From Nanobdellota archaeon (GTDB lineage Archaea > Nanobdellota > Nanobdellia > Woesearchaeales > JAHWHD01): 24,000 nucleotides of DNA. The notes below the pieces were generated by a model. That model saw nothing but the letters and a program-made list of their open reading frames with translations. It was not told the DNA's origin and ran no database searches. The position numbers and the translations under genes were made by a program. Every line of letters starts with the position of its first letter. Position 1 is the stretch's first letter. Where the stretch lies: NCBI GenBank assembly GCA_034722435.1, contig JAYENX010000024.1, positions 17,494 through 41,493 on the forward strand, read 5' to 3'. Shown here in pieces: positions 3,239 through 18,495 of the stretch.

Positions 3239-3252
3239 GAGTGTGTTTCCTC

Positions 3253-3272
3253 TGCTTAAATATTTTTAAACA
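3253..3272. promoter_or_regulatory. Copy 3 of the 20-bp quasi-palindromic motif (TGCTTAAATATTTTTAAACA), in the divergent promoter region
   Basis: On the minus strand it reads TGTTTAAAAATATTTAAGCA. Its TTTAAAAA part ends 24 nt upstream of the ATG at 3238. Confidence 0.5.
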
Positions 3273-3310
3273 TTGTTGTTTACAATCATACCTATTTTGT
3301 TATCTAAACA

Positions 3311-3318
3311 TTTTTAAG
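3311..3318 (+). promoter_or_regulatory. TATA-like octamer TTTTTAAG, 23 nt upstream of the ATG at 3342
   Basis: Same geometry as six other first-gene starts in this window. There is no SD between it and the ATG. Confidence 0.4.
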
Positions 3319-3341
3319 TAATAGCTTTAATACAATGCAAA

Positions 3342-3605
3342 ATGGTAATTAAAATAACAATTCCAAAGCTTGTAAAAATACTACAAGATCGGAATAAAGA
3401 TAAATCTGGTACATACAAAATAAGTAAGTACACTGTCAAAATCATTAAAGATGGTGTGACCATTAATGAGCGTGTTATGAATCTATACAATATTAGAAAG
3501 TCACAAGGATTATGTGTTACTTGTGGCACACCTGTTAAAAAGAAGAATCCTAAAACCGGAAAAAAGTACACTAGATGTAAAAATCATAGGACGTGGGAAA
3601 ATTGA
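3342..3605 (+). CDS. Small basic protein (87 aa) with C-terminal CxxC...CxxH zinc-ribbon-like motif
   Basis: The track ORF is K-rich, whereas the competing minus ORF 3314..3571 is F/L/I-rich antisense-type sequence. The motif is CVTCGTPV...TRCKNH. It is divergent from the wHTH gene. Confidence 0.6.
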   Translation: MVIKITIPKLVKILQDRNKDKSGTYKISKYTVKIIKDGVTINERVMNLYNIRKSQGLCVTCGTPVKKKNPKTGKKYTRCKNHRTWEN

Positions 3606-3666
3606 AGATATTTGAAAAAATAGCTAGATATTTTTGGGATAGACCACCACGTGGAAGATATGGTTT

Positions 3667-5322
3667 TTAGCGTTTCTTTTTCTTATTTTTCATCATGTAG
3701 TTAACAGATAATCCAATCACTACAAGCACAAATACTATAAATCCAATGAAGAACGGTGTTATCTTAAAATTTGTATTTGGAATCTCATAGATATCTGTGT
3801 TAAGATACGACACAAATTGCTGCAATATATTTTCTCTTATGTTTACTGTAATTTCATATAATTGCACATTCCCATCTACAGCTACAGAAATGTATCCTAA
3901 ATACTCGCCAACTGCAATCTCACTAGGAACTCTTACTTGAGGTCTCACATATTTTACATTCTCAGTCAATCCACCAGATGATGGTACAGTTACAATTATC
4001 TCTTTAAAATCATCAAAATATATCCAATCATACACTTCTGGATTCTCTACGCTTTTAACCACACTTACTTTTGGTTGTATTGTTTCTGTTTCCTCATTAA
4101 TTATCTTGAACTCAATATCATATATCTGTCCGGGTTGGACATTTATTTTCTTAAATCTTGGATCTATCCTATATGTTATGTTATCCATAGATTCAACTGG
4201 GTAATCATCTCCTCCACCGCCACCGCCACCTGTTGCTGGCGTGGTTCTTGTTTGTACATTCATGCTTTTAGTTACATTACTTTGTTTACCAAAAGAATCT
4301 TCATATGTTATATTTACATCATATTGACCAATTGCTGATGGATACCATGTAAGCGTTTTAAAATAACATTTATTTTTGTCGTATTCTGTAACATATGTCC
4401 ATGTAGAATCACTCATTGCTAAGACTCCGCTAGCACCGTTATATATCTTGATTGAATGAATAGATGTAATATCACATCCATCTTCTGAAATATCAACGTA
4501 CAAATAACAAGATGTATCTCTCTGACAGCTATTTGGTGCTCCATTCCTGAATGATTCGATTCCTGTTATATTTGGATCAACATTTTTAGCTTGCAAAGTT
4601 CCGGTGTATGTTGTGTACCCCAAGTTGTTATCATACAAGATAATTTCGTAGTTATTCACAGTGTAATCATTGAGTGTAAATGGTAATAGCATATCAGAGC
4701 CGGAGTACGTATGTACAGAACTCTCTATGCTATCACCAGATGAATTTGTTATGTCAAAATGTACTTCTTTTATTCCGGGAGTACTATTGAAGTTACTTAG
4801 AATTAGATACATTTCATCTCTCACTTGCCCTGTAATATTTGTAAAATTAGTGTAGAATATATCTTGATTGTCTTTAAGAGTAATGTTTGCTGTTGGCGCA
4901 ATGTTTGTAAAAAAATTTAGTATGTTGTATTGACTTGTAGCATTAATTGAGAAATTTCCATCAGTATTTCCTTCTATTATGCTTCCGTTGTATTGCACAA
5001 CGTAATTATTTGGAATACCACTCATTGTAAAGTTTAATTCAATATTTGATTCTGCTCTTACTGAATAATTTTTTTGATAATCGTTATTTACCATTATCGT
5101 TGTATTTACTCCCGGTACTTCTTTGTATGCAAATGTCCAATTTCTTAGCGTTATACTCTCGGGATAAACAGTAACGTTAACCAAATCTTGTGTAGAATTT
5201 ACAAACATTGTCATATTTATCGATGATGCATGTATATCAACCGTAGTGTTATATATTGCAGCTTGAGCATATACAATACAAATAAATAATGTCAATATCC
5301 ACAATAGTGATTTTTTAATCAT
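3667..5322 (-). CDS. Type-I membrane glycoprotein-like protein, 551 aa (signal peptide, sequon-rich ectodomain, Gly7 hinge, C-terminal TM anchor)
   Basis: The N-terminus MIKKSLLWILTLFICIVYAQA/A looks like a Sec signal. I counted 20 N-x-S/T sequons, 16 of them in the first ~195 residues. GGGGGGG is encoded at 4210-4230. The C-terminus is ITPFFIGFIVFVLVVIGLSV followed by the basic tail KNKKKKR. Confidence 0.9.
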   Translation of the reverse strand: MIKKSLLWILTLFICIVYAQAAIYNTTVDIHASSINMTMFVNSTQDLVNVTVYPESITLRNWTFAYKEVPGVNTTIMVNNDYQKNYSVRAESNIELNFTMSGIPNNYVVQYNGSIIEGNTDGNFSINATSQYNILNFFTNIAPTANITLKDNQDIFYTNFTNITGQVRDEMYLILSNFNSTPGIKEVHFDITNSSGDSIESSVHTYSGSDMLLPFTLNDYTVNNYEIILYDNNLGYTTYTGTLQAKNVDPNITGIESFRNGAPNSCQRDTSCYLYVDISEDGCDITSIHSIKIYNGASGVLAMSDSTWTYVTEYDKNKCYFKTLTWYPSAIGQYDVNITYEDSFGKQSNVTKSMNVQTRTTPATGGGGGGGDDYPVESMDNITYRIDPRFKKINVQPGQIYDIEFKIINEETETIQPKVSVVKSVENPEVYDWIYFDDFKEIIVTVPSSGGLTENVKYVRPQVRVPSEIAVGEYLGYISVAVDGNVQLYEITVNIRENILQQFVSYLNTDIYEIPNTNFKITPFFIGFIVFVLVVIGLSVNYMMKNKKKKR

Positions 5323-5521
5323 GTAAACGTCTCATTCTTGATAATTTATTACTAAATGCCTTTCGTAATGCTTTTTCATTTATGTAAACTAATTGAGATA
5401 TTTCATCATATTCATCCCCATACTTTTCGTACTCAGTCAAAATAAAACCTATATCTTTTTCCCATCTTCCAATTAACATAAATGGTTCCATTTCTTCTTT
5501 TCTTATTAATATTGAATTCAT
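5315..5521 (-). CDS. Small soluble hypothetical protein (68 aa)
   Basis: Track ORF. AAGGAG lies ~10 nt upstream and there is an 8-nt overlap (ATGATTAA) with the downstream gene. It is the only non-exported product in the operon. Confidence 0.6.
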   Translation of the reverse strand: MNSILIRKEEMEPFMLIGRWEKDIGFILTEYEKYGDEYDEISQLVYINEKALRKAFSNKLSRMRRLHD

Positions 5522-5590
5522 TTCCTTTTTCTCCTTGTTCTTTTTTGAAAATCTTATACTTTAGTGTTATTTGTTTTGGTAAATTTATCT

Positions 5591-7438
5591 TTAAGTCTGT
5601 GCCCCAACCACTGATCCATCAGTGTCAGATGTAGGTACACTATTTTTTATTCTTAAATCGCCTGTTGAATCTATCCAAATGTGATAATTCCCAAGTATTA
5701 GTGTTACATTTTCATTTACACTATCTTCTCTCCTAACTCTAAACTTGTTTGTCCCATCATGAAGTATAGCTATACTATTTTGCACATCTGCTACTTTTTG
5801 GTCAATAACAATTGCTGGTTTTGTTGTTGATTCTGAATCAATATATAATGAATTTCCATTCCCATTCTGGTCAATGAATATTCCGCTACCTGTGCCATCT
5901 TGTTGAATCTTTAAAGCATTTTGATCGTCACCAGAGTTATCATTAACTACATTCATTAAAGCTCCCGCTGTGTTCGTACTATCCAAATCTCTATAAAATA
6001 AATTAGTTCCATCTGAACTTGTTTGATCACGATTTAATCTTACCACTTCTGCATTTCCATTTCTTGCAAGAATCATCATAGTATTTGTAGAGTCTGAATT
6101 TTCAATAGAAAATGTTGTGCCACCAACTTCTTCTGAGTCAATACGCAATGCGGTGCCATTCCCATTTTGGTCAAGAAATATTCCATCACCTGTACCATCT
6201 TGCTTTACTCCGAGTGCATTGCCTGTAGCGCCAGTATTATCTACTGAAATGCCAACTAATCCGTCAATTCCTGCACCTGTAAACGATCCACTTGCACTAT
6301 CAGAATAAAATGTTGCTGCATTACCCGTTGTTAATGAATTTCCTTGAATTACCAATCCACCCGATTTATAAAATGAATCACCAGTTGTTGCATCGGTGTC
6401 AATATATACCGATTTGTCATTTTCGTCAGGATAAATTGATATTGGATTATCAAATACATACTTACCCGCACCACTATATGTCATAATGTCAGATGTTGAA
6501 TTGTATGTCATCTCAGCAACTCCTGTCAATAATTCACCATTTGCTTGATTAACTGTCGATATTAATGCTACTGATGCTTGATCACTTTCTTTATCTGTAA
6601 TTGCGAAAGTTCCCTCAAACAGTGCAAATCTATTTGGTATAATTGGCGACTTGTCGTCTGAATCGAAACTGAGCATTGGATATTCATAATAATTATTATC
6701 TGCACCACCAGTTATCAATGAAAAATTAATTGGCATTGTTGTAATATTGATTAATCCTGTATTATCAATGTAAACATCTCCATCAACTTCAAGTTTTGCT
6801 GCTGCTATTCCTGTTCCTATCTTAACATTTCCTGATGGCATAATCCTCATTGCTTGAGTGCCATTTATGTGCATTATATACTTTGCTGCATGCATCCATA
6901 GATTATTATAAGGCACATCATCAGTTGGATCTCTGAAAAATAATGAAAATACATTATTATTTGAATTAAATCCACCACCCATTGCACCATCATAAGTCCC
7001 TCGTTGCTCTCCCAACCAGAATCCATCACCAGATGTTTTTCTTACATGCAATGGAGCTAGAGGGTTATCAGTTCCTATTCCTACCCATCCGCTAGGCGTT
7101 ATTTTCATTATTTGATCCGATGTAGAATTGTAGAATCTGTATCGATTTGCATAAAATTGCATTTCCTTCATTGTATTATCAATATCCCTTGACATAATAG
7201 CAGCAACACCATTATTTTGATTTAGTGCTATTGCAAGTCCGGCAGGGGTTGTTCCGTTTGCAAAGAACCCAATATTTGTTTTTGAGTCATAAGCTGTAGT
7301 GTATAGCTTATATTCTGTGTTTCCTTCTATCTTTGATCCTATTCCTATTTCAGAATCTCCAATATATGTATAAGCTGTTACACTTAAACATGCAAGTATC
7401 GTTATAATTAGTATCATTGCTGCTTTTGTAATTTTCAT
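5591..7438 (-). CDS. Tail-fibre-like / receptor-binding-type secreted protein, 615 aa
   Basis: It has a signal peptide (MKITKAAMILIITILACLSVTA). It carries two copies of the fibre-type motif PSG[NW]V[GK]IGT...L[HE]V (residues ~115-134 and ~201-224). It also has two copies of QDGTGxGIFxDQNGNGxxLxIDSE. The C-terminus is WIDSTGDLRIKNSVPTSDTDGSVVGAQT. From memory these motifs recur in phage and archaeal-virus fibre proteins. Confidence 0.9.
   Translation of the reverse strand: MKITKAAMILIITILACLSVTAYTYIGDSEIGIGSKIEGNTEYKLYTTAYDSKTNIGFFANGTTPAGLAIALNQNNGVAAIMSRDIDNTMKEMQFYANRYRFYNSTSDQIMKITPSGWVGIGTDNPLAPLHVRKTSGDGFWLGEQRGTYDGAMGGGFNSNNNVFSLFFRDPTDDVPYNNLWMHAAKYIMHINGTQAMRIMPSGNVKIGTGIAAAKLEVDGDVYIDNTGLINITTMPINFSLITGGADNNYYEYPMLSFDSDDKSPIIPNRFALFEGTFAITDKESDQASVALISTVNQANGELLTGVAEMTYNSTSDIMTYSGAGKYVFDNPISIYPDENDKSVYIDTDATTGDSFYKSGGLVIQGNSLTTGNAATFYSDSASGSFTGAGIDGLVGISVDNTGATGNALGVKQDGTGDGIFLDQNGNGTALRIDSEEVGGTTFSIENSDSTNTMMILARNGNAEVVRLNRDQTSSDGTNLFYRDLDSTNTAGALMNVVNDNSGDDQNALKIQQDGTGSGIFIDQNGNGNSLYIDSESTTKPAIVIDQKVADVQNSIAILHDGTNKFRVRREDSVNENVTLILGNYHIWIDSTGDLRIKNSVPTSDTDGSVVGAQT
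5831..6217 (-). repeat. Internal duplication in the fibre-like gene (units at 5831-5920 and 6128-6217)
   Basis: The protein units ALGVKQDGTGDGIFLDQNGNGTALRIDSEE and ALKIQQDGTGSGIFIDQNGNGNSLYIDSES lie ~100 aa apart. The similarity is also visible at DNA level (ccattcccatt.tggtcaa..aatattcc...cctgt.ccatcttg). Confidence 0.8.
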
Positions 7439-7443
7439 TGTTG

Positions 7444-8043
7444 TTACCCCTCCATTTGTGATAATAGTACTAATCTACCATTATACATATTGTCTCTTGT
7501 ATATATTTCTATCTGATCTTGTGAACACTGAATTAAAAACAATGATACTCCATTTTTGAAGTGCCATTTTGCTGCTTCTGTGTCACCCATCCATATTCTA
7601 TCTCTACATGGACCATTAGGATGATTATGAATTAATGCCATTTCATTGCATTTTCCTATTGATACAAAATTACTTTCTCCCTCATGTAAACTTTCAATCT
7701 TGTCTAAATATATTGTTGCGTTTCCTTTTGTCCAATCGTCAACATCTGTTTCATGCGAGAAATCTCCCTTTATGCATGCAGCATATTCTGAATCTAAATG
7801 CTCGTTCCATTGATTCCTTAATTCATCTGCTAATCTATCACGCATAATTATCTTTATATTTGGCGAATACATTGCTCCTGTAACATTATCATCATTACTT
7901 AAAAAATCATAATTAAATGGTATATATACAACCCTTGTTTCTATCCATCCCATCTGATTCAAAAGACAAAATCCCAAAATAATTATTCCACATACTATCA
8001 AGAAAAATAGTATGAAATAATCAAATTTTGTCAATCTTGTCAT
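7444..8043 (-). CDS. N-terminally membrane-anchored protein, 199 aa, with JAB/MPN(RadC)-like HNHPNG motif (tentative metalloprotease fold)
   Basis: A TM helix is present (FDYFILFFLIVCGIIILGFCLL). EYAACIKG lies ~53 residues upstream of ALIHNHPNGPCRDRIWMGD. The His-x-His-Pro and upstream Glu-x-x-x-Cys pattern resembles JAMM/RadC. The canonical Ser-x-x-Asp spacing is not satisfied. There are ATGA overlaps on both sides. Confidence 0.85.
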   Translation of the reverse strand: MTRLTKFDYFILFFLIVCGIIILGFCLLNQMGWIETRVVYIPFNYDFLSNDDNVTGAMYSPNIKIIMRDRLADELRNQWNEHLDSEYAACIKGDFSHETDVDDWTKGNATIYLDKIESLHEGESNFVSIGKCNEMALIHNHPNGPCRDRIWMGDTEAAKWHFKNGVSLFLIQCSQDQIEIYTRDNMYNGRLVLLSQMEG

Positions 8044-10295
8044 TTCTTTTTCCTCATGAATATAAAATACGATGACAAAGCAAACAACAGTATCATTGTT
8101 GCTCCATATATCATATAATTGTTAATATTTTTATCTCCGACTGAATAGTCTTGATTTTCAATTATTTGTCTTAATTGTGCAACTAATTCTTTTTCTCTTT
8201 CTAGTGAGTCTGCATACTCAGCAATAAGTGCTTCTTTTTCTTCCAATGTTATTCTTAAGTTTGCAACAATTTCTGTAGTATCTGCAAGATTCACTTCCAA
8301 TTCTCTTATTAATTGCTTCATTTCGTTATTTGTCAATTTTAAATCACTAATTAATCTTGACATCTCTTCATTACTAAGCTCGAGCTGCATAATTAATTCT
8401 GCTTGTTGTGCAATATTCAGATTAAGGTTTCGTATTAACTCTGCTTGTTCTTCGACTTCTAATTCTAGTTCAGAAATCAAATCCGCTTGCTTTCCGATGT
8501 TATCATACAACTCTTCAATTATCCTTGCTTGTTCTGCAAGTGTTATCTCCATTCCTTGTATAATATTTGCTTGTTCTGATACCTTTGTTGATAATGTTGA
8601 TATAATAACTGCATCTTCTGCTATTGTAAGATTTAATTGTGAAATAATTTCACCTTGCTTTCCAAATGACACTTCCATTTCTGCAATTAATTCAGCTTGT
8701 CTCTCATTTTCTACCTCAAGTTGACTTATTAGTGCAGCTTTTATTGCCAAATTATTTGTAAGCTGATTAATCAAATCTGCTTGTTCAGCGATATTTTGCG
8801 TCAACTCTTCAATGTATATTGCTTGTTGCTCTACTGTTTGTGAAAACTCTTGTATCATTGTTGCTTGTTCTGCAATAGTTAATTCTAATTCTTCCATAAT
8901 TGCTACTTGATTAGCAATATTTTGTGTCAAACCTGCAATTATTTGAGCTTGCTCATCAACTCTAGTTGATAATTGTTCAATTAATGATGCCTGCTCTTGT
9001 ACCTCTAAATTCATTGCAGCAATTATTGCTCCCTGCTCTTCAAGTGTTATCTCTAGATTTGATATTATAATAGCCTGCTCATCTGTATTTGTTGTCAACT
9101 CTTGTATCAACATTGCTTGTTCTTCAATATTTAATTCAAGTTGAGATATAATTTCTGCTTGCTCTTCTTTAATTAATGTTAATTGATTAATTATTGCTGC
9201 TTTTTCTGCTATTGTTCCCTCAAGTCTATTTATTGCTTCAATTTTACTTGCAATGTCTGTATTTAGTACATCTAGATACCCTCTAATGTAGTCTTGACAT
9301 ATGAGATAATTACTTATTCCTGCTTGTTTACATATTTCTGGCAATTCTGGATTTATACATTGATGTTCAATAATTACAGCCGCATCGTCACATACTAATT
9401 GCTCACATATCGCTTCTTGTTGTGATTTTTTTGAGCACACTTCTTCTTCTTGACAATCTGCATTCTTTGAACATTCAATATTACTTTTGTATAGAGGCTT
9501 TTCGTCCCATTCTGTTCCTGCTGCTGTCCACGCCCAATCTCTACCATTTGAATCGAAATCAAAACATACCATGTGTAGATGGTCAATTGTTGCATAATCT
9601 GTAAGATCTAGAGTATGATCTTTATTTGCTGATATTTTTTTATGATAATTTCTACATCCACTTTTATCACAATTTGCGTGATTCCAAAATGAATTCCAAT
9701 CACCTACATTTTGTGTATAAATATATGCCTTATCTCCTTTACACTTGTAGTAAAAAGGATATTTTGATGATACGTATGATTTTCCATTATATTCGTCATA
9801 ATACAAAGGTCCATAGTAGTTTTTTGCTACTGCTTTTGCAGATCCATAAGATGCCTCAGAAAAATAGCACCCTTCATAATTTCCATATGCATCGCAATTC
9901 CCATACTGTGTTTCTTCTTCATAATCATCCTCATCTTCTAACTCACATTTATCGAAATATGTTGTGTATCCTTCATTTCTGCATGCATCACGTCCTTCAT
10001 CTGTATAACATATCTGGTATGACCCATCTGCGCAAGGTAATGATCCGGGACTACTACCACCATATATGTATACTGTCTCACCCTCATCCAATATACTATC
10101 AACTTGAGACGCAGAGCATGTGAATTTATCTGCATATGGTCCGTTTGGATCTGTACAATATCTACCTGTAGTTTCTAATGCTTCCCAATTCCAAAATTCC
10201 CACCAATTCGGTCTGTCATATACTGTTTCTGCTTGTACAGATACCAACATTATAAAAATTAATGACAAAATTGCAATCAGTCTTAGCATTTTCAT
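8040..10295 (-). CDS. Anchored stalk protein, 751 aa: signal peptide, ~320-aa Cys/aromatic-rich head, ~364-aa coiled coil of 14-residue repeats, C-terminal TM anchor
   Basis: The signal peptide is MKMLRLIAILSLIFIMLVSVQA/E. There are about 20 Cys in residues 47-333. Residues 344-707 are strictly 14-periodic. The C-terminus is NYMIYGATMILLFALSSYFIFMRKKK. Confidence 0.92.
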   Translation of the reverse strand: MKMLRLIAILSLIFIMLVSVQAETVYDRPNWWEFWNWEALETTGRYCTDPNGPYADKFTCSASQVDSILDEGETVYIYGGSSPGSLPCADGSYQICYTDEGRDACRNEGYTTYFDKCELEDEDDYEEETQYGNCDAYGNYEGCYFSEASYGSAKAVAKNYYGPLYYDEYNGKSYVSSKYPFYYKCKGDKAYIYTQNVGDWNSFWNHANCDKSGCRNYHKKISANKDHTLDLTDYATIDHLHMVCFDFDSNGRDWAWTAAGTEWDEKPLYKSNIECSKNADCQEEEVCSKKSQQEAICEQLVCDDAAVIIEHQCINPELPEICKQAGISNYLICQDYIRGYLDVLNTDIASKIEAINRLEGTIAEKAAIINQLTLIKEEQAEIISQLELNIEEQAMLIQELTTNTDEQAIIISNLEITLEEQGAIIAAMNLEVQEQASLIEQLSTRVDEQAQIIAGLTQNIANQVAIMEELELTIAEQATMIQEFSQTVEQQAIYIEELTQNIAEQADLINQLTNNLAIKAALISQLEVENERQAELIAEMEVSFGKQGEIISQLNLTIAEDAVIISTLSTKVSEQANIIQGMEITLAEQARIIEELYDNIGKQADLISELELEVEEQAELIRNLNLNIAQQAELIMQLELSNEEMSRLISDLKLTNNEMKQLIRELEVNLADTTEIVANLRITLEEKEALIAEYADSLEREKELVAQLRQIIENQDYSVGDKNINNYMIYGATMILLFALSSYFIFMRKKK
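8175..9266 (-). repeat. 26 tandem 42-nt (14-codon) diverged coding repeats, consensus roughly L-x-L-x-I-x-E-Q-A-x-L-I-x-x
   Basis: I hand-parsed residues 344-707 into consecutive 14-mers with no indel: LNTDIASKIEAINR, LEGTIAEKAAIINQ, LTLIKEEQAEIISQ, LELNIEEQAMLIQE, ... LRITLEEKEALIAE, YADSLEREKELVAQ. The register was checked against the DNA (L344 = 9266..9264). Confidence 0.9.
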
Positions 10296-10612
10296 TCTGT
10301 TCCTACACCCGTTTGTACATTCTCACTTGTTCCTTGACTATCTGCCCTGTAATTTTCATCAAATTCATAGTCAATTTCTTGACCATTTATGCATGCTATA
10401 TAGTTTTGGCTATGATATTCTACTGAGCAATCACTATATCCATCACATACATATGCGCACTTTTCCATTGATTCGCACAATATAATATTTTTACAACTAA
10501 TTTTATCGTCTTCGTTTATTTGTCCCGTAATATCAAAATACTGATTAGCTGTAAAAATAGCTAAAATTGCTAATAGTGCTATAACTCCCAGTATTATTGC
10601 ATTTTTCTTCAT
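10292..10612 (-). CDS. Small secreted Cys-rich protein (106 aa from internal ATG)
   Basis: I trimmed the track ORF 10292..10663 to the ATG at 10612. That ATG forms an ATGA overlap with the upstream stop and yields a clean signal-type N-terminus (MKKNAIILGVIALLAILAIFTA). The short acidic mature part has 6 Cys. Confidence 0.75.
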   Translation of the reverse strand: MKKNAIILGVIALLAILAIFTANQYFDITGQINEDDKISCKNIILCESMEKCAYVCDGYSDCSVEYHSQNYIACINGQEIDYEFDENYRADSQGTSENVQTGVGTE

Positions 10613-11715
10613 ACAAATAACCCCGTGAAGAATGATACTATTGCATTCCACCACTTTGCCCAAAATGGCAACACTTCTGGATCTGTCTCAGGTATGTTTT
10701 CTTCTGGTTCGCCAATAAAATCTCTCTTAATAAATTCAGCAGCCTTTTCACATAATGTTAAATCTTCATAAAATGTTTGATCTATCGCATCGCTTTGTAA
10801 TATTTGTACACATTTTGCGTCTGATAACACATCATTTTCGTATACTCTTTCTACGATATATCCACTTAGTTGCTCTGGTGGGCTATCTGGTGGCTCATCT
10901 GGCACTTCTGGTGGGTTTTCAGGTGGCTCAGGTGGTGTATCTGGTGGATCGTTTGGATCCACTTCACTTTCTGGTTCTGCACAGTTATGCCATCCTGTCT
11001 TTGCTGTGCTTGTTTCTGTTCCTTCTATTACATATCCCGGATCGCATACAGTTCTATATTCCTGTAAGACTCTCTGACTACATAATGGTGCATCACCGTA
11101 TTTAGTACATGCTCTCTGCTGTAAATCTGCATGATATGCTGTGTCGGTTGTTATCCATCTATCACAAAAATCAGTAGGACAATCCGTTATTCCAACATTG
11201 AAGTTTGTACATTCATCTCCAATTAATGATCCTGATGTTTCCCTGATTGTGTAACATAATTTGTATTCTCCTGATGTTATTGGTGCATTAAACTCGCTTA
11301 CAGTATTCAAATTTACTGACTTTCCATATGAACTACATAGATCTGGTCCGAATAGACTACATCCTAATGCATAACTTAGCGGATATCTGAAATCCCAACT
11401 ATTCAACACCTGATTATTTCTGTCATAAAGTCTCATCGTTGCCTCTTTTATTCCATCAAACTGAGGAATTGATATAACCAAATCAACATCTACTAGTTCG
11501 CCCGGATCTGGGTTAGATTCTGATAAAAATATTGCAAACATTGATCCTTCTATATTTCCCTTTGACACCTTTGTACATACTACTTCTTCATTTTCTCCAA
11601 GTTCACAGTGCTCTCCTACAGTTGAAAATGTACCTGCTAGATATAATGTTGATATTATTGCAGTTAATAATAATATGCCAATTAAAATCATTGTTTTGTC
11701 AATTTTTTTCATCAT
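10609..11715 (-). CDS. Cys-rich membrane-anchored protein, 368 aa, with Pro-rich linker and hydrophobic C-terminus
   Basis: The N-terminal leader MMKKIDKTMILIGILLLTAIISTLYLAGTFSTVG is paralogous to that of the 572-aa protein. It has 14 Cys and the linker DPNDPPDTPPEPPENPPEVPDEPPDSPPE. The C-terminus is LPFWAKWWNAIVSFFTGLFV. Confidence 0.9.
   Translation of the reverse strand: MMKKIDKTMILIGILLLTAIISTLYLAGTFSTVGEHCELGENEEVVCTKVSKGNIEGSMFAIFLSESNPDPGELVDVDLVISIPQFDGIKEATMRLYDRNNQVLNSWDFRYPLSYALGCSLFGPDLCSSYGKSVNLNTVSEFNAPITSGEYKLCYTIRETSGSLIGDECTNFNVGITDCPTDFCDRWITTDTAYHADLQQRACTKYGDAPLCSQRVLQEYRTVCDPGYVIEGTETSTAKTGWHNCAEPESEVDPNDPPDTPPEPPENPPEVPDEPPDSPPEQLSGYIVERVYENDVLSDAKCVQILQSDAIDQTFYEDLTLCEKAAEFIKRDFIGEPEENIPETDPEVLPFWAKWWNAIVSFFTGLFV
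10870..10977 (-). repeat. Low-complexity Pro/Glu/Asp linker coding region (degenerate TCTGGTGG-type repeats on the plus strand)
   Basis: Residues 247-282 are EPESEVDPNDPPDTPPEPPENPPEVPDEPPDSPPEQ. The plus strand shows reiterated ctggtgg/caggtgg units. Confidence 0.8.
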
Positions 11716-12557
11716 ACATCACCCGATAATATTATCCCTATCTTATTTAGTGCTCCTCCAAATATGACCAAAAGTATGAGTGTAATTATCCAACCAATTT
11801 GAAAAAAGTTTTGTGTAATTACTCTATATGCCTCTCCAACTCCATACACTGCTAGATTATTTCCAACATGTGCACCAAAACTAAATGTTGTAGTTATTGC
11901 TACATATTTTATCATATTAGCCCACTGATCCCCTTTGACTATAACAATCATAAGTGCTCTAAATATTATGGCTGCAATAATAAAAGCTGTGAATGCTAAT
12001 TTTCCAATATGGAATATTGCAAATGTTGTTCCTGCAATTGTTGCGATAATTGCTATTTGTAACCATATATTTGTGAATATTTTGAATTTTTTTCCTAACA
12101 AATCTAGAAGCAATTTTACAACGATTGGTATTGTGAACATCCAGAAAAATTCTTCTGCTATTGGTATGAGAAATGACGTAGATCCAAACTCTAACATTTT
12201 CGGCATTTGTCCTGAGACTGATGTTGCTAACTGATTTTGTGATATTGCAAATACTGATTTTTCGTATCCGCCTGTGAAAAATACCATTCCACCCCATGCA
12301 ACCAAACCAATCACAAATGATAAACATGCATCACTCCAACCACCCATATATCTTATTACGTTTTGTTTGAAAATTGTCTCACCTAATATTATAAGGATTG
12401 GTGCTGACAATAACATTGTTCCAAATATCAATAAATAGAATCCTGCTCTTATTGAATTGTTTTCGTGACCCCAGATACCCACCCAGATGAAGACAGCTAA
12501 TGCTATTACAAATAATGAAGTTATGAATGCTATTCCGCCTATGCCTTCATCTTTCAC
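11712..12557 (-). CDS. CPBP-family (CAAX protease/Abi-type) intramembrane glutamic metalloprotease, 281 aa
   Basis: Polytopic membrane protein with the three family motifs in the right order and spacing. They are IPIAEEFFW (EE at residues 135-136, nt 12150-12155), FAIFH (H183) and GAHVGNN (H230...N234). The Arg of the EExxxR motif is replaced by Trp. The start is GTG with GGTGAT 5 nt upstream. Confidence 0.85.
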   Translation of the reverse strand: MKDEGIGGIAFITSLFVIALAVFIWVGIWGHENNSIRAGFYLLIFGTMLLSAPILIILGETIFKQNVIRYMGGWSDACLSFVIGLVAWGGMVFFTGGYEKSVFAISQNQLATSVSGQMPKMLEFGSTSFLIPIAEEFFWMFTIPIVVKLLLDLLGKKFKIFTNIWLQIAIIATIAGTTFAIFHIGKLAFTAFIIAAIIFRALMIVIVKGDQWANMIKYVAITTTFSFGAHVGNNLAVYGVGEAYRVITQNFFQIGWIITLILLVIFGGALNKIGIILSGDV

Positions 12558-12571
12558 CTACAATCACCAAT

Positions 12572-12605
12572 AAAAAATAAAAAAATGACTGAGCTAATTA
12601 GCTCA
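12572..12605 (-). terminator. Perfect 16-bp palindrome TGAGCTAATTAGCTCA (12590-12605) containing the TAA stop, followed on the minus strand by T7 and T6 runs
   Basis: Read directly. It lies between the 362-aa gene and the CPBP gene, so it would act as a partial terminator or attenuator inside the operon. Confidence 0.5.
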
Positions 12606-13686
12606 AGTCTAATGTAAATGACTGTAGTGTATAGATAGCTGCTGGACTTGAAGCATCTGTCACAGAACTGTATCTTACATCGTATCCGCTTGTAGCACGT
12701 GCTGCACCAATTGTAGCGAAAGCAATTACAATATCAGATGTTGGATTTACTCCATCAACTGCTTCTACTTCAAGCTCGATAGATACATCATCATCTTCAA
12801 TTAATGCTGATGCTTGATCTGCCTCAAGTTTGTATACATATTCATATGATGAATATGATGTGCTTTCCTTTTTGTCTACAAGATCAAATACAGATAACTT
12901 ACTACCTTCAAATTTAACAGTTGGCTCTTGGAAATCTGATGTGCTTGCATCAATTAAGATGTATAATCCAAGATCTGCTACATCACCATCAGATATTGTT
13001 GCCTCAGCTTCGATATTGAAGTCAATATCTCCTGATGCTCCAACTGCTGTTGCTGTTGTATTACCTGTTGTAGATTTGAACGTTGCTCCTGTGGTTTCAA
13101 AGTCAGTTGCATCATTATCAGAGCCATCATATACCCAACCTGATTGGTCGTTATCATATACTCTAATTTTGATTGGCGAATGTTGCTTACTTACAAGCTC
13201 AAGGTTTAAACTAGGACCTGTTGCTGTAAATTTAACCGCTCTTCCACCTTCAACTACTGTAGCATCTCCTGCACCTACTGACATAATCATAGCTGAATCT
13301 CCTGATGATCCATCTGCTGATACTTGTCTGTAAACATAGTCGCTTCCACAATCTAGTGTAGCTGTTCCGGCTGTTGTATCTGTAATTGTTGATTTTAGAC
13401 TTTCTTGTCCGTTAACAACTTTGTACAAATAACCTGTGTTGTCATATGTTTCAATTCCTGTCGTATTTAGTCCGTTATTGACGGTTAATGTCAATGCAGT
13501 ATCTAAATCAGTTGGACATCCTGCCACTGATCCAGAGCCTTGACTTCCACCACCATTTGATGCTCCAATAGCACTAAATGGTCCAATTCCGGCAAAATAC
13601 GCAAGACCTGTCATTACTAGCAAGGCTACTAAGATTATGCCTACTAGCATAACTACCATGTTCTTTGTTGCGTCTTTTGTTCTCAT
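12598..13686 (-). CDS. Abundant-type structural protein candidate, 362 aa, N-terminal membrane anchor/leader, Thr/Ser/Gly/Asp/Ala/Val-rich
   Basis: Track ORF with the strongest SD in the window (GGAGG 6 nt upstream of the ATG). Its GC content is visibly higher and it is poorer in Lys/Asn/Ile than all neighbours. It is the first gene of the operon, with its own long leader upstream and a terminator-like element downstream. The N-terminus is MRTKDATKNMVVMLVGIILVALLVMTGLAYFAGIGPFSAIG. The structural role is inferred. Confidence 0.9.
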   Translation of the reverse strand: MRTKDATKNMVVMLVGIILVALLVMTGLAYFAGIGPFSAIGASNGGGSQGSGSVAGCPTDLDTALTLTVNNGLNTTGIETYDNTGYLYKVVNGQESLKSTITDTTAGTATLDCGSDYVYRQVSADGSSGDSAMIMSVGAGDATVVEGGRAVKFTATGPSLNLELVSKQHSPIKIRVYDNDQSGWVYDGSDNDATDFETTGATFKSTTGNTTATAVGASGDIDFNIEAEATISDGDVADLGLYILIDASTSDFQEPTVKFEGSKLSVFDLVDKKESTSYSSYEYVYKLEADQASALIEDDDVSIELEVEAVDGVNPTSDIVIAFATIGAARATSGYDVRYSSVTDASSPAAIYTLQSFTLDLS

Positions 13687-13800
13687 TTTTTTCCTCCATC
13701 ATCCGCATGCGATTCCTCGGAGCTTGCTTGATAATGGTTCAGGGGGGGTTAAACCATTAATCCTTACTGACCCCGGATCTTCCTATTGCGTTTGAGCATA
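13687..13800 (-). promoter_or_regulatory. Long GC-rich (~48% over 13701-13800) structured 5' leader of the 362-aa gene
   Basis: It has a perfect 8-bp stem TAATGGTT (13732-13739) / AACCATTA (13752-13759) around a 12-nt loop that carries a G7/C7 homopolymer (13742-13748). There is a CGCATGCG palindrome near 13704-13711. CTCC at ~13716-13719 (minus sense) could pair with the GGAG of the SD. TATA-like runs lie further upstream at ~13800-13850. Confidence 0.45.
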
Positions 13801-13842
13801 TATTTTATATATTACTTTATTCATAAATTCTGTATTGTATCA

Positions 13843-13850
13843 TTTATAAG
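13843..13850 (+). promoter_or_regulatory. TATA-like octamer TTTATAAG, 25 nt upstream of the ATG at 13876
   Basis: No SD in the intervening 25 nt. Same geometry as the other first-gene starts. Confidence 0.45.
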
Positions 13851-13875
13851 TTTTTTTTAAGTAAAATCCTGAAAA

Positions 13876-14445
13876 ATGAAAGGTATCATGTTTTTTGGAA
13901 AAATATTTGCGAGTAAGCTGCCTTTACTCAAAGTTGTGTTTATTCCTGCTATTGCGTGGGGAATTGTTATTATTGGTGTTCTAAACACATTATCTAAGAA
14001 GGGTTTTGGCGAAGCGATGATTGAGCTTGTTCAAAAATCATTAGCTTCCGAGTACACAATAAATCAAAATGTCACTCTTGCGATACAAAATCCTGAATTA
14101 TTTGGATTTATGCATTTTTTGGAAATTGTTTCTGCTGTCCTTATATTTTACTATCTAGTGAAGTGGATTACAAAAGCACAAATTGGTGATACTGGTGCAC
14201 AAGCATGGATGGGAGCTGCTCGATGGTCCATCTTAATTGTCATAATACTTGAAATAGCTGTAATATCAGTTACTAATCTAGATTTACAATTCTGGAATTA
14301 TTTTATTCCAATAAAAGATTCATTCTGGTATTTACTTATGAATTTCTATCATGTTGTTGATGCAACACCTATACTAACTTTTTTTGCGTCAAGTCCAAAT
14401 GTTGCTGAGATAAATCAATCAATTAATTTTACTGATTCTTTCTAA
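13876..14445 (+). CDS. Polytopic membrane protein, 189 aa, unknown function
   Basis: This is the only long ORF in this interval on either strand. It has four to five hydrophobic segments and is divergent from the structural operon. Confidence 0.8.
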   Translation: MKGIMFFGKIFASKLPLLKVVFIPAIAWGIVIIGVLNTLSKKGFGEAMIELVQKSLASEYTINQNVTLAIQNPELFGFMHFLEIVSAVLIFYYLVKWITKAQIGDTGAQAWMGAARWSILIVIILEIAVISVTNLDLQFWNYFIPIKDSFWYLLMNFYHVVDATPILTFFASSPNVAEINQSINFTDSF

Positions 14446-14514
14446 TATCCATCTTACTACTGCTTTCATCACTTCCTTTCTAATTAATCAACCAAATCTA
14501 GGCATGATTCAAAA

Positions 14515-14778
14515 TTATTTTAATAGTTCCAATGGTGTATTTTCTATTTGTATTTTTGCAAGTTTTGTCTCAATTTCTTCTTTTATTTTATCCCCTAGAC
14601 TTTGCATTCCTGCTAATTTTGTCATACACTTTTTACATAATCCCCATGATTTTAATGCTCTTTGACTGTATCCTCCTTTTTCTGGATATTTTGACACTAC
14701 CATTCGCCCAACACATCGTGACACTTTCTTTCCACACATATCACAAAATTTTATATCGCAACCGATTACTCTTCCCAT
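14515..14778 (-). CDS. Small zinc-ribbon protein, 87 aa
   Basis: CDMCGKK...GLCKKCMTK gives two CxxC pairs ~33 residues apart. It starts with ATG and has a basic composition. Confidence 0.7.
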   Translation of the reverse strand: MGRVIGCDIKFCDMCGKKVSRCVGRMVVSKYPEKGGYSQRALKSWGLCKKCMTKLAGMQSLGDKIKEEIETKLAKIQIENTPLELLK

Positions 14779-14781: not shown

Positions 14782-14997
14782 CTACGACACATCCATAATT
14801 TTGAGAATCTCTTTTGTTGCTCCAATTATTACCCAGTCTCTAAATTCCATTTTAATATCAAGATGATTTCTATTTAACCAATTTTGATACTCTTTATTGT
14901 TATAAGATGGATTAATATTTGATTTTAAGTTATTCATAATAACCTTTACTCTAAATATTTTCTCTTTGTGAGTTAAACTTTTTATTCTAAGTTTCAT
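14782..14997 (-). CDS. Small hypothetical protein (71 aa from internal ATG; MKLRIKSLTHKEK...)
   Basis: I trimmed the track ORF 14782..15120 to the ATG at 14997, which overlaps the upstream TAA by 1 nt (TAATG). The N-terminus MKLRIKxLxH is shared with the 46-aa ORF at 15481..15621. Confidence 0.55.
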   Translation of the reverse strand: MKLRIKSLTHKEKIFRVKVIMNNLKSNINPSYNNKEYQNWLNRNHLDIKMEFRDWVIIGATKEILKIMDVS

Positions 14998-15481: not shown

Positions 15482-15621
15482 CACTTCCTCCACCTTAACA
15501 GATTAAGCATTTTTATTGCTGATTCTTTTGTTTTGTGTTTACTAATAATTTCTAATGTGTCCTCATCAGTAATCATATAGCCGGATTTATCGTGACCTAA
15601 TTTTTTTATTCTAAGTTTCAT
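15481..15621 (-). CDS. Small hypothetical protein (46 aa, MKLRIKKLGHDKSGYMITDEDTLEIISKHKTKESAIKMLNLLRWRK)
   Basis: Manually translated codon by codon. GGTGACAATTG lies immediately upstream of the ATG and the stop overlaps the next ATG. Its first 10 codons match those of the ORF at 14997 at about 25/30 nt. Confidence 0.35.
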   Translation of the reverse strand: MKLRIKKLGHDKSGYMITDEDTLEIISKHKTKESAIKMLNLLRWRK

Positions 15622-15627
15622 CAATTG

Positions 15628-15747
15628 TCACCACACTGTTTTTACTTTTTCTGAAATCTTTTTATGTTTCTTACAATATATATTATTATATGCAACACAT
15701 CCACACATACAACATATCATTTTATAATTTGGAGTTTTTATCTTCAC
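15628..15747 (-). CDS. Tiny Cys-rich protein (39 aa from GTG, or 30 aa from the ATG at 15720): ...MICCMCGCVAYNNIYCKKHKKISEKVKTVW
   Basis: The GTG at 15747 is preceded by the same GGTGACAATTG context used by the next ORF. It has 5 Cys plus 1 His in 20 residues. The alternative model is listed under rejected items. Confidence 0.3.
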   Translation of the reverse strand: MKIKTPNYKMICCMCGCVAYNNIYCKKHKKISEKVKTVW

Positions 15748-15846
15748 CAATTGTCACCTCTTGAATATAAAGACCCCGAGCCATTAAAGGCTCAATTATT
15801 GTACAATTATAAAACATCAAAGTTTTAGGGTCTATTTTATGTTTCA

Positions 15847-16032
15847 TCATATCCGCCCCACATACTTAGGAGATTTGCCTTTATTTCCTATTTTATCGCC
15901 ATTATATAGCTTAATTAATCTGCTTATTACATCGTCGTAAGTTTCGCCCATTACTCCTATTTTCTTAATATCTTCTGTTGTCGAAATACGTAACTTTACT
16001 GATGTTCGTGATTCTTCGTTATTGGTAGCCAT
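15847..16032 (-). CDS. Ribbon-helix-helix (CopG/VapB-antitoxin-like) DNA-binding protein, 61 aa
   Basis: TSVKLRISTTEDIKKIGVMGETYDDVISRLIKLY fits the beta-strand, helix, G-E-[ST]-x-x-D-V-I-x-x-L-I pattern that I recall from small archaeal RHH/antitoxin-like proteins. No PIN-type toxin follows it. Confidence 0.7.
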   Translation of the reverse strand: MATNNEESRTSVKLRISTTEDIKKIGVMGETYDDVISRLIKLYNGDKIGNKGKSPKYVGRI

Positions 16033-16068
16033 AGTATACTTAATAGTATCGGTAGTATATATATATTT
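16032..16068 (-). promoter_or_regulatory. Promoter/operator of the RHH gene: (TA)n TATA-like run plus three direct TAGTAT(A) repeats
   Basis: On the plus strand, TAGTATA lies at 16032-16038, TAGTAT at 16044-16049 and TAGTATA at 16053-16059, merging into a tatatatatat run to ~16066. The TA run ends ~23 nt upstream of the ATG and there is no SD. Confidence 0.45.
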
Positions 16069-16106
16069 CGTTTATGAGGACTTTTTGGTGTTATTTCCTA
16101 CAAGAT

Positions 16107-16138
16107 AAAAAGAAAAAAATAGACTCATTTAAGAGTCT
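16107..16138 (-). terminator. Hairpin AGACTC-TTAAAT-GAGTCT containing the TGA stop, followed by T7 and T5 runs (minus strand)
   Basis: Read directly. The stem arms are at 16121-16126 and 16133-16138, and the A7/A5 runs on the plus strand are at 16113-16119 and 16107-16111. It ends the integrase plus 110-aa unit just before the RHH promoter. Confidence 0.5.
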
Positions 16139-16457
16139 CTAGAACTGATTTAAGCTTATTAAATCTTTTAATAGAATATTCTAGTATATCAATTAATACT
16201 GTATCACTTAGCTTTATATTAAGATATACTTGGGCTTCTCCATTTTTAGTTATTGCATTAGATGATATTTGGATTTCCCCGTCTTCAAAGTAATATTCTT
16301 CTCCTGAAAGATTTTCGCTCATTAATTGAAGCCATTTTTTATCTTTTTCATTAATATCATTTTCTATAGCTTCGTTTCTCATACTTTCAATGTGGTTTTT
16401 AGTGTCTAAAATAGTTATATTTACATAACTAGGTGCAGTTTCTTTGTCTACATTCAT
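16125..16457 (-). CDS. Hypothetical acidic protein, 110 aa
   Basis: Track ORF with a strong SD (AGGAGG 8 nt upstream of the ATG). It lies downstream of the integrase gene. Confidence 0.7.
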   Translation of the reverse strand: MNVDKETAPSYVNITILDTKNHIESMRNEAIENDINEKDKKWLQLMSENLSGEEYYFEDGEIQISSNAITKNGEAQVYLNIKLSDTVLIDILEYSIKRFNKLKSVLETLK

Positions 16458-16547
16458 TTTATTCCCTCCTGCCGATCTCTCAGCAAATATTCCGAAATCT
16501 CAGAATAAATATTAGTAGTGATACTTATTTATTAATGTTCGCCTTTC

Positions 16548-17465
16548 CTACATTTTCCCAATATCGTAATCTCCAAATTTACTATATGCTTTCATACCAC
16601 GATATGGAGACACCTCTATATAAATCTCTGATGTCTTAACACTTTCATGACCTAAATATGCACTAATTGAAAGTATATCCGCACCAGCATCAGCCATATG
16701 CGTAGCTTTTGTATGACGCATACAATGAGGTGAAACATCTCTTTGCAGTATCCTTTTTGTTGTTGTTTTAACTATTTCGTATAATCTGTGTCCTTTGTCA
16801 ACCCTTGCCTTTCCATCCCCTCTATTAAATTGAAAAAGACTAACATTTTTCGTTTGAATTTTACCTTCGTATATTTTATAGATTAATTTCCTCGATGTTT
16901 TGTTCAGATAAACCTCTCTAACTTTATTTCCCTTTCCAACAACTCTAATTTTGGCATATATTCCAGATTTAATTAGCTTCTTTTCTTCTGATTTTGTCCA
17001 TCTAATATCTTTAAATTTTATTCCTATCACTTCTGAACGTCTACATGCAGTATCATACAAAACACAAAATAATGCTTTCGTTTCTAAATCCTTTATCTTC
17101 TCAAACAAATCCCTCAATTCATCTCTACTCAATATTTTATTTTGCAACATTTTTCTTGATTTCAACGCATTTGTATACCTAGTTTTTGGTGGCTTTATGT
17201 GATCTATCAGGTCTGATTCATAATTATTTACAGTTTGAAGATACCATAGGTATGCCTTTATTGCAGAGTAGTGTATCATATTAGACTTTTTTCTAATTAG
17301 TTCATTGCAAACCAAAATTATCTCTTTTTTTGATTTACACATATGTATTTTCTCAATATCATTGTGCAAGAATCCAACGTATCTTTCTATTGTAGAAGGT
17401 GCGTATTTCTCGCCATCCGGCTTTTTAGCTTTCTGCATGAACTTTATGAAATTATTTATCTTCAC
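16548..17465 (-). CDS. int: Tyrosine recombinase / phage-type integrase (XerC/D-like), 305 aa, apparently intact
   Basis: The N-terminal core-binding-type region is YAPSTIERYVGFL...AIKAYLWYL. Catalytic motifs are in order: ACRRSEV (Arg), PHCMRHTKATH (HxxR), LGHESVKTSEIYIEV (His...Tyr nucleophile). The track start is a GTG at 17465, and an in-frame ATG lies at 17438. Confidence 0.95.
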   Translation of the reverse strand: MKINNFIKFMQKAKKPDGEKYAPSTIERYVGFLHNDIEKIHMCKSKKEIILVCNELIRKKSNMIHYSAIKAYLWYLQTVNNYESDLIDHIKPPKTRYTNALKSRKMLQNKILSRDELRDLFEKIKDLETKALFCVLYDTACRRSEVIGIKFKDIRWTKSEEKKLIKSGIYAKIRVVGKGNKVREVYLNKTSRKLIYKIYEGKIQTKNVSLFQFNRGDGKARVDKGHRLYEIVKTTTKRILQRDVSPHCMRHTKATHMADAGADILSISAYLGHESVKTSEIYIEVSPYRGMKAYSKFGDYDIGKM

Positions 17466-18494: not shown

Positions 18495-18495
18495 T

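Follow-up and report, generated by a model that had tools for sequence, protein, structure and literature searches.

The window analysed here is a 24-kb stretch (24,000 nucleotides, GC content ~33%) of the 41.5-kb contig JAYENX010000024.1 which carries nearly every one of its genes on the minus strand; coordinates refer to this window and to its minus strand unless stated otherwise, and all negative statements on the content of the underlying element cover this window. Nine open reading frames (ORFs) within it form an operon (3667-13686) whose products are almost all exported or membrane anchored, and upstream of this operon the genes for a tyrosine recombinase and for Fusexin1 (Fsx1), a class II fusogen of the HAP2/GCS1 type, are located. 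Since both an integrase and a genuine Fsx1 are found inside, the window is considered to be the interior of an Fsx1-carrying mobile element, the size of which is at least 24 kb. With a probability of roughly 0.55, the operon is suggested to be the surface-attachment module of a small integrating element that spreads by membrane fusion, whereby it would probably supply the attachment step for this mode of DNA transfer.

A sequence-only reading of the window had described nine consecutive, mostly overlapping minus-strand genes for exported or anchored proteins, and all nine ORFs were found at the coordinates given; four junctions are 4-nt ATGA overlaps, one is an 8-nt overlap and the others are gaps of 5, 40 and 69 nt. 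The tight overlaps and short gaps point to operon packing, and the arrangement is not a matter of chance, as seven of the nine genes are found in the same order in one related locus (L013) and a nine-gene backbone is common to the window and another (L009). By a hydropathy scan, eight of the nine proteins begin with a hydrophobic segment, the 68-aa p68 alone being soluble, which agrees with the claimed make-up. Apart from p68 the operon products are acidic (5-8% Lys plus Arg); the small soluble proteins encoded elsewhere in the window are mostly basic (mostly 13-26% Lys plus Arg) and mostly free of hydrophobic segments. Scans of the window proteins against Pfam, PHROGs and NCBIfam returned no capsid, portal, terminase or polymerase family, no A32-type ATPase was found with Pfam or PHROGs, and none of the proteins possesses a Walker-A motif of a P-loop ATPase; the claimed absence of these functions from the 24 kb hence holds in these scans. 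The nine operon proteins gave essentially no matches in the same three libraries, and neither att sites nor terminal repeats nor tRNA genes were detected inside the window. What went too far is the statement that the ensemble resembles nothing that can be named: capsid and packaging genes are indeed missing, but the integrase and Fsx1 had been overlooked, so the mystery was overstated.

The first gene of the operon, p362 (12598-13686), encodes a 362-aa, N-terminally anchored protein, which is composed of a transmembrane (TM) helix (residues 7-31), a disordered Gly/Ser linker and an all-beta, Ig/CnaB-like beta-sandwich ectodomain. Its ATG is preceded at a distance of 7 nt by a GGAGG Shine-Dalgarno (SD) sequence, and exactly at its stop codon a terminator-like hairpin with a T7 tract (12589-12606) was identified, which is the sole minus-strand terminator-like site within 3300-14600 and likely attenuates expression of the downstream genes. 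Given the strong SD sequence and the terminator at the stop codon, p362 is probably produced in larger amounts than the proteins encoded after it, which backs its earlier description as abundant-looking. By sequence, p362 matched no entry of Pfam, PHROGs, NCBIfam or the PDB, and an identical sequence from a Nanoarchaeota metagenome-assembled genome (MAG) is annotated merely as hypothetical protein. A word-index search returned 22 homologues, and an exhaustive profile search yielded 406 clusters (50% identity), among which 351 reach E<=1e-10, the matches being almost without exception full-length with 336-422 aa; by these searches, p362 founds a large, length-uniform and unannotated family. In the family alignment C57 and C113 are invariant, the linker is variable, the C-terminus (D-[IVL]-[STA]) is conserved, and sequons near N74 and N209 are kept in about two thirds of the full-length members.

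The AlphaFold2 (AF2) model of p362 reached a predicted local distance difference test score (pLDDT) of 85.8, and its comparison with the PDB by Foldseek placed the pilins SpaA, BcpA and SpaD on top (~1e-7), whereby E-values for these and RrgB ranged from 8e-8 to 1e-5 at TM-scores of only ~0.3. The conjugative aggregation substance PrgB and antigen I/II were further fold neighbours (E ~1e-7 to 1e-4 overall), and the best structural match of all, well ahead of the PDB pilins, was A0A5Q2WAX2 in BFVD (309 aa, E = 3e-11, TM 0.49/0.56), an unnamed protein classed as viral by UniProt. The modelled ectodomain is of the tandem Ig/CnaB type. A jelly-roll or HK97 capsid protein, or an analogue thereof, was rejected as an identity for p362, the top PDB and BFVD fold matches being pilins and adhesins with no capsid protein among them. 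A sortase pilin was rejected likewise, as LPxTG occurs in none of 144 family members, no invariant Lys for an isopeptide link is present in the alignment and no sortase gene was found in the window or the related loci.

The gene p281 (11712-12557; 281 aa) follows, its product being a polytopic, divergent CPBP/Rce1-like intramembrane glutamic protease. Its orthologue in the related locus L006 (L006:11151-12044; 30% identical, E = 5e-29) scores 24.2 bits against the Rce1-like family, the gathering threshold of which is 22.4 bits, and across seven orthologues the motifs PI-x-EE (E134-E135), F179-x3-H183 and H230-x3-N234 are invariant, the Arg of EExxxR being replaced. By this orthologue and by its catalytic motifs (E135, H183 and H230-x3-N234) p281 is a CPBP/Rce1-type protease, as had been called before. 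A word-index search with p281 returned the query alone; short, clear Rce1-like genes are present in the same modules of L010 and L017.

Next in order is p368 (10609-11715; 368 aa), a doubly anchored and variable protein, in which an N-terminal TM helix is followed by YLAGTFSTVG, a Cys-rich variable ectodomain (14 Cys in the whole protein), a Pro-rich linker and an aromatic C-terminal tail (FWAKWWNAIVSFFTGLFV), in line with its earlier description as Cys-rich and doubly hydrophobic. Proteins of this kind, here referred to as W-tail proteins, have ectodomains that are unalignable between loci while both termini are conserved, the extreme C-terminus reading W-N-W-I-x-x-F with an invariant Trp. 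One W-tail protein is encoded in every CPBP-containing locus, after the CPBP gene, and the motif was found in the last 25 residues of 8 out of 197 proteins, all of them within modules (two of the eight had not been used in defining the motif), as compared to three occurrences in 47,797 other residues. The eight members are p368 itself (C-terminus at 10609-10670), L013:5371-6297, L009:12009-13007, L014:1600-2751, L002:12032-13372, L017:3495-4412, L006:8640-9800 and L015:13513-14529. The W-tail is considered a possible C-terminal signal for the CPBP protease, marking either a substrate or an anchor. A second shared motif is found right after the N-terminal helix of Fsx1 (YTGTFSIIG, residues ~24-33), p368 (LAGTFSTVG, residues ~24-34) and p362 (GIGPFSAIG, residues ~30-41) and also in the unrelated exported proteins L002:12032-13372 and L013:7163-8875, the consensus being Y/F-x-G-x-F-S-x-x-G. 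It is not present in proteins with ordinary Sec signal peptides; the strict pattern is enriched ~21-fold at its position, and among 143 p362-family members outside the definition set it occurs in 11 (~8%) as compared to 2 of 1,728 windows. This post-TM motif may be a processing or sorting signal.

Two repeats touch these genes. A 33-nt tandem repeat of 2.2 copies (10874-10947) encodes the Pro/Asp/Glu-rich linker of p368 (PPDTPPEPPENPPEVPDEPPDSPPE), and a 23-nt near-identical sequence, on the coding strand GGGTGATG[T/C]ATGATGAAAAAAAT, occurs at 11702-11724 and 20282-20304, that is, at the p281/p368 junction and at the junction of Fsx1 with the next gene, and consists of an SD-like GGTGAT and an ATGATG start. 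At the latter junction it would start a 70-aa ORF with two TM helices (20083-20295, MMKKIARY…), and because this ORF overlaps a 160-aa ORF the call of the 160-aa gene may be wrong.

Three further exported products are encoded more distally. The 751-aa p751 (8040-10295) possesses a Sec signal peptide, a head with 20 Cys, a stalk and a C-terminal TM anchor; the stalk comprises ~26 repeats of 14 residues (EQAxIIxxLxxxIx; 42-nt periodicity in the DNA), which amount to ~370 aa and as a coiled coil would span ~55 nm. In relatives, stalks of p751-type proteins are conserved and heads vary. The fibre-like p615 (5591-7438; 615 aa) carries an N-terminal hydrophobic segment, and its residues 93-210 give a partial match to phrog_18345 ('tail fiber', 7.7e-7); a precomputed annotation assigns it to PF26986 (Cap_depo), while our own Pfam search gave no hit, and homologues are encoded in L013 and L016. 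The last gene, p551 (3667-5322; 551 aa), encodes a candidate type-I membrane glycoprotein with a Sec signal peptide, 20 N-x-S/T sequons, a poly-Gly hinge and a C-terminal TM helix followed by KKKKR, and a homologue is found at the matching terminal position in L013. The head-stalk-anchor architecture, the fibre-like character and the sequon-rich glycoprotein predicted for these three genes were thus recovered.

Fsx1 (20304-22022; 572 aa) is encoded ~6.6 kb upstream of the operon. Its match to the HAP2-GCS1 family (PF10699; 3e-6, 26.5 bits) is just below the gathering threshold of 27.4 bits, one of its four database relatives (P0027) carries the Fsx1 family PF28161 (E = 1e-27), and a five-sequence profile (A3) aligned to PDB entry 7P4L with E = 1.3e-38 over chain residues 8-509, i.e., nearly the whole ectodomain. 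The hydrophobic segments (residues 1-36, 510-537 and 540-572) correspond to an N-terminal TM helix or signal and two C-terminal TM helices. By its profile matches, the protein is a genuine Fusexin1. The integrase (16548-17465; 305 aa) matches PF00589 (3e-22) as well as XerC/XerD/XerA-like NCBIfam models and phrog_1 (integrase). Beyond Fsx1, a 70-aa two-helix hydrophobic hairpin of the DUF378 family (22414-22626; precomputed PF04070) is encoded; such hairpins (64-70 aa) are conserved, lying upstream of Fsx1 in the window and having counterparts in L009 (L009:4684-4878) and L002 (L002:6908-7108), they weakly match the viral phrog_36131 of unknown function (2e-4 and 6e-6), and the DUF378 protein is a candidate membrane or matrix component. 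Its resemblance to spindle-virus hairpin capsid proteins or pleomorphic-virus matrix proteins is one of shape alone. Besides that of the integrase, the strongest phage or virus family match in the window is the one of the 188-aa p188 (300-866) to phrog_4273 (function unknown, E = 1.8e-20).

Comparison of the window with the gene neighbourhoods in 11 non-redundant related loci distinguished a close subgroup (window, L002, L006, L009, L012, L013 and L014) from a second subgroup (L003, L010, L011, L015 and L016). In all seven loci of the close subgroup a p281 orthologue directly follows p362, and in L013 the order p362, p281, p368-like protein, coiled-coil protein, fibre and glycoprotein is kept. 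The triad of p362, CPBP protease and W-tail protein is conserved; no other part of the elements is kept as well over the range of 30-62% GC, and it resides beside integrase and ATPase genes. Five loci encode the coiled-coil protein and six the integrase, which adjoins the module in L002, L009, L012 and L013, while the integrase of L010 is a related one. The distal fibre and glycoprotein genes vary between elements, and in their place relatives encode LamG proteins exceeding 2,300 aa. The region upstream of p362 is visible in five of the close loci, and in four of these (window, L006, L009 and L012) it contains an Fsx1 homologue at a distance of 3-9 kb. A 552-aa protein of L003 was considered as a further Fsx1 and ruled out by hhalign. 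A separate low-GC element, L017, carries behind a primase/helicase-like gene a string (L017:2955-8855) of genes for a 164-aa CPBP protease, a 305-aa W-tail beta-sandwich protein (CarboxypepD_reg), a 550-aa Fsx1 and a secreted protein of 917 aa; the 305-aa protein was ruled out as a sequence homologue of p362 or p368, the match being confined to termini and architecture. L003 and L011 encode a DUF87/FtsK-HerA-type ATPase adjacent to p362, L006 also encodes such an ATPase, and some sister element encodes a D5-type primase-helicase. As FtsK/HerA-type ATPases serve both the packaging of membrane viruses and conjugative DNA translocation, this ATPase does not discriminate between a virus and a conjugative element.

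Searches by tblastn with p362 and Fsx1 found no match among GenBank phages (even at E = 10) or PLSDB plasmids, and scans of IMG/VR and of GTDB-representative genomes found no relative. In metagenomic relatives the gene order is found again. The central proposal of the sequence-only reading, a mobile element with a surface or envelope apparatus of a novel kind, is strengthened, as the module matches no family of Pfam, PHROGs or NCBIfam, is absent from the phage, plasmid, IMG/VR and GTDB sets and travels with an integrase and a fusogen.

An archaeal host is likely for the window element. Several window genes that lack an SD sequence carry a TTTATATA-like box 25-35 nt ahead of the ATG, which would suit archaeal promoters and proves nothing; sigma-70-like promoter counts are at chance level. 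The MAG labels name Nanoarchaeota, Paceibacterota and Fermentibacteria and are unreliable for mobile contigs. The L003 element (~60% GC), which has a tRNA-Asn of its own (2770-2842), ends beside bacterial-type tRNA-Gln and tRNA-Ala genes (15593-15754), followed at 15900-21086 by RNase Z and MlaE/MCE/MlaF transporter genes in ~70% GC DNA; no att or terminal repeats were found in its visible part. Because of these flanks, a bacterial chromosome is concluded to be the integration site of the L003 member, and members of the p362 family consequently occur in both domains or, at the least, in hosts that differ greatly. The archaeal host named in the sequence-only reading is, in view of this member, not established.

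Based on these findings a working model is suggested, in which several proteins encoded by the element itself become inserted into a lipid membrane. Here, p362 would form the bulk coat, its beta-sandwich ectodomain being tethered by the N-terminal helix, while p751 would project its Cys-rich head ~55 nm outward on the coiled-coil stalk and p615 and p551 would serve as variable recognition or glycan-clearing parts. As a dedicated sorting or maturation protease p281 would mature or anchor the surface proteins, with the aromatic C-terminal tail of p368-type proteins and the G-x-F-S-x-x-G motif of p362, p368 and Fsx1 as candidate targets. The adhesins would then dock the carrier membrane to a target cell, whereupon Fsx1 would merge the bilayers and the element DNA would enter. 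Such a transfer agrees with what is known of related fusogens: HAP2-mediated fusion is gated by the Ig-like-domain adhesins FUS1/GEX2, viral class II fusogens require accompanying proteins (both PMC13601591), and fusion-dependent transfer has been put forward as the way in which Fsx1 elements spread (Moi et al. 2022, PMC9259645); the fit to this adhesin logic and to the published transfer model supports the suggested role of the operon.

Several points weigh against this model. The pairing of protease and substrates, the adhesion role, the coupling to Fsx1 and the nature of the carrier membrane are, like all functional links made here, inferred from genomic proximity and from resemblance in sequence or fold, and for the operon and Fsx1 the link is one of proximity. 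In the window no replication initiator, particle-forming protein or ATPase was identified; p281 itself gave no Pfam hit at E<=10, PF02517 included; and both the post-TM and the W-tail motif were defined post hoc. No Fsx1 is found within 10 kb upstream of p362 in L002, nor in the visible region of any second-subgroup locus (L003, L010, L011, L015 and L016), hence p362 is not strictly dependent on a fusexin. Finally, the L003 member resides in a bacterial chromosome, where fusion-based transfer is harder to picture.

As to the carrier, we lean slightly towards a released, vesicle-like and capsid-less particle over a donor cell, because the element is small, the p362 family is hallmark-like and an ATPase is adjacent in relatives, and also in view of the tail-fibre-like protein, the viral structural neighbour and the absence of type IV secretion system (T4SS) genes. 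Such a particle leads to a more specific version of the suggested model, namely that the operon encodes the envelope proteins of a temperate virus, enveloped by a membrane and devoid of a capsid, or of a plasmid vesicle, with p362 as major envelope protein, Fsx1 as entry fusogen, the DUF378 protein and further small hairpins as internal membrane proteins and fibre and stalk as receptor binders, following the pleolipovirus/plasmavirus/pR1SE principle without sequence relationship. We hold this version tentatively, as a possibility of clearly less than even odds. Small element size, many tiny ORFs, an integrase and tRNA-adjacent integration speak for it, as do the FtsK/HerA (A32-like) ATPase of L003, L011 and L006, the tail-fibre/depolymerase-like p615, the hallmark-like uniform length and high diversity of the p362 family, its UniProt-viral best structural match, the PHROG matches of p188 and the DUF378 proteins and the T4SS genes missing from the window; class II fusogens are, moreover, classic viral envelope proteins. 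However, the contigs are not in IMG/VR and are unlike any deposited virus, the pleolipovirus module (VP3, VP4, AAA+ ATPase, ORF6/7) was not detected by PHROGs, the window has no ATPase, 2,300-aa adhesins and a 55-nm stalk would be unusual in small pleomorphic virions, and the particle itself is putative. If instead the carrier were a donor cell, the adhesins would aggregate donor and recipient in a mating-type contact and Fsx1 would open a cytoplasmic bridge for the element, which we consider rather unlikely, a little more so than the enveloped particle. Sister FtsK-like ATPases recall the TraB-type transfer of double-stranded DNA by actinomycete integrative elements, relatives possess long-reach adhesins and giant LamG proteins, and the fold neighbours of p362 are cell-surface adhesins and pilins, PrgB included, which aggregates cells for pCF10. 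A hypothesis of this kind was published for Fsx1 elements (Moi et al., PMC9259645), and FUS1/GEX2 set a precedent in eukaryotic gametes (PMC13601591). Yet no VirB4, TraG or relaxase gene is visible, unlike in haloarchaeal Fsx1 elements, several p362-family members are without visible Fsx1, and cell fusion by the putative DPANN or other hosts is hypothetical.

A role outside of element transfer was also considered, in which the operon is cargo that is kept as a fitness module and remodels the host surface, either for the attachment of an episymbiotic DPANN or CPR cell to its partner or for blocking superinfection, whereby the CPBP protein could be an Abi-type immunity protein. Giant LamG proteins are typical of Nanoarchaeota and Paceibacterota genomes, CPBP/Abi proteins act in immunity in bacteriocin loci, the MAG labels name lineages living attached to hosts, and the distal genes are highly variable. 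Nevertheless the idea appears improbable, since the p362, CPBP and W-tail module is most conserved across 30-62% GC and resides beside integrase and ATPase genes: the core modules of mobile elements usually serve the elements themselves, and linkage to Fsx1 is tight in several lineages, up to direct adjacency in L017. Least credible of all, and in our estimate very improbable, is a pilus of the sortase or donor-strand type, in which p362 would polymerise as the pilin and p281 would be its assembly enzyme. Gram-positive major pilins are the best PDB matches of p362 and a dedicated membrane enzyme is encoded next door, but LPxTG, invariant Lys and sortase are all missing, the N-terminal linker of p362 is neither conserved nor ordered and thus would make a poor donor strand, and TM-scores to pilins are ~0.3.

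Comparison with known systems places the surface-attachment module suggested here next to the haloarchaeal Fsx1 elements (PMC9259645), with which it shares a genuine Fsx1 of the same ectodomain (7P4L), a XerC/D-like recombinase and the proposed fusion transfer. Those elements were reported as insertions exceeding 50 kb in genomes of high GC content, carrying HerA, VirB4 and TraG/VirD4-type genes (PMC9259645); in contrast, the window has 33% GC on a 41.5-kb contig, HerA, VirB4, TraG and VirD4 ATPases were not found in its 24 kb (the sister elements having just a DUF87/HerA-like ATPase), and it carries the p362/CPBP/W-tail/coiled-coil surface module. CAAX, CPBP and DUF378 terms do not occur in the supplementary neighbour tables of PMC9259645. 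In these respects the window element is a carrier of another kind. Pleolipoviridae, Plasmaviridae and pR1SE share with the window element the lack of capsid genes, small hydrophobic membrane proteins, a membrane fusogen that is exported by an N-terminal signal and anchored at its C-terminus, an integrase and, in sister elements, an ATPase. For VP3, VP4, AAA+ ATPase, ORF6 and ORF7 (list: 10.1101/2025.02.15.638363), the PHROG scan of the window proteins gave no match, and as compared to these agents the fusogen is of class II/HAP2 type instead of VP4 type and the element is several-fold larger with a richer adhesin set. HAP2 with FUS1/GEX2/MAR1 (PMC13601591) resembles the present set in combining a HAP2-family fusogen with anchored Ig-like proteins and in placing adhesion before fusion; here, however, the genes are clustered on a mobile element, no homology in sequence between p362 and FUS1/GEX2 was found in a comparison made at the level of fold class, and coupling to Fsx1 is a supposition. 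With Gram-positive adhesins and pilins (SpaA, BcpA, SpaD, RrgB, PrgB and antigen I/II) p362 shares the fold class of its ectodomain, but its anchor is an N-terminal helix and not the cell wall.

Archaeosortase/exosortase and the CPBP-family 'myxosortase' are dedicated protein-sorting proteases, and their arrangement is likewise that of a polytopic membrane protease beside surface proteins with a TM helix and a short terminal motif. In contrast to these systems, the N-terminal TM helix with G-x-F-S-x-x-G and the Cys-less aromatic C-terminal tail match no described signal; two new candidate terminal sorting signals for a CPBP protease are thereby suggested.

To our knowledge, Fusexin1 is the sole known prokaryotic relative of HAP2 and the viral class II fusion proteins, and its natural role is obscure because it was studied in mammalian cells only. 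Fsx1 elements as such are already known; no description of the surface module, the p362 family, the pairing of CPBP protease and W-tail or the compact low-GC carrier was found in the literature and libraries searched. The window places Fsx1 in a compact low-GC element very unlike the haloarchaeal ones, the conserved surface set nearby looks like the missing adhesion and maturation partners, and a defined parts list (p362, p281, p368-type and p751-type proteins and Fsx1) results, with the p362 family marking a class of mobile elements that is invisible to current virus and plasmid finders. Taken further, the ~400 p362 clusters, which extend over 30-62% GC, might represent a widespread and hitherto overlooked lineage of capsid-less enveloped viruses or self-transmissible vesicles, probably of archaeal and bacterial hosts, some of which would enter by means of a HAP2-type fusogen, Ig adhesins and a CPBP protease; this generalization is speculative, and we regard it as unlikely. 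If true, it would describe the first prokaryotic virus-like agent with a fusexin, include a candidate accompanying protein for Fsx1 and offer a concrete prokaryotic system for the 'virus or the egg' question on the origin of gamete fusogens.

The remaining operon genes, p106, p199 and p68, are not conserved in relatives. p106 (10292-10612; 106 aa) encodes a small exported protein with 6 Cys, for which a mechanical ORF list gives 123 aa by use of an upstream TTG, and p68 (5315-5521; 68 aa) encodes a small soluble acidic/basic protein, both in keeping with the earlier description of a secreted Cys-rich and a single small soluble product. The 199-aa p199 (7444-8043) had been called a TM-anchored JAB-like protein; the N-terminal anchor was confirmed, but the JAB assignment has no profile support (no hits in Pfam, PHROGs, NCBIfam or the PDB); an HNHP motif is present, the downstream S-x-x-D is out of register for the JAB motif, and the single-sequence AF2 model (pLDDT 40.5) is unusable. 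On the plus strand and divergent from p362, p189 (13876-14445) encodes a polytopic membrane protein, which adjoins p362 in five loci and is divergent in three of them, the window included. Outside the operon, a 29-nt repeat (93% identical) occurs at 2146-2174 and 3246-3274, containing a palindrome-like TTTAAATAT(A/T)TTTAA followed by GCAGAG; one copy is located just upstream of the p351 start, and the repeat is probably a duplicated promoter or operator. A 30-nt repeat (14968-14997 and 15592-15621) gives the products of two small paralogous genes an identical N-terminus (MKLRIK…), and 14997 is probably the true start of the listed 112-aa ORF.

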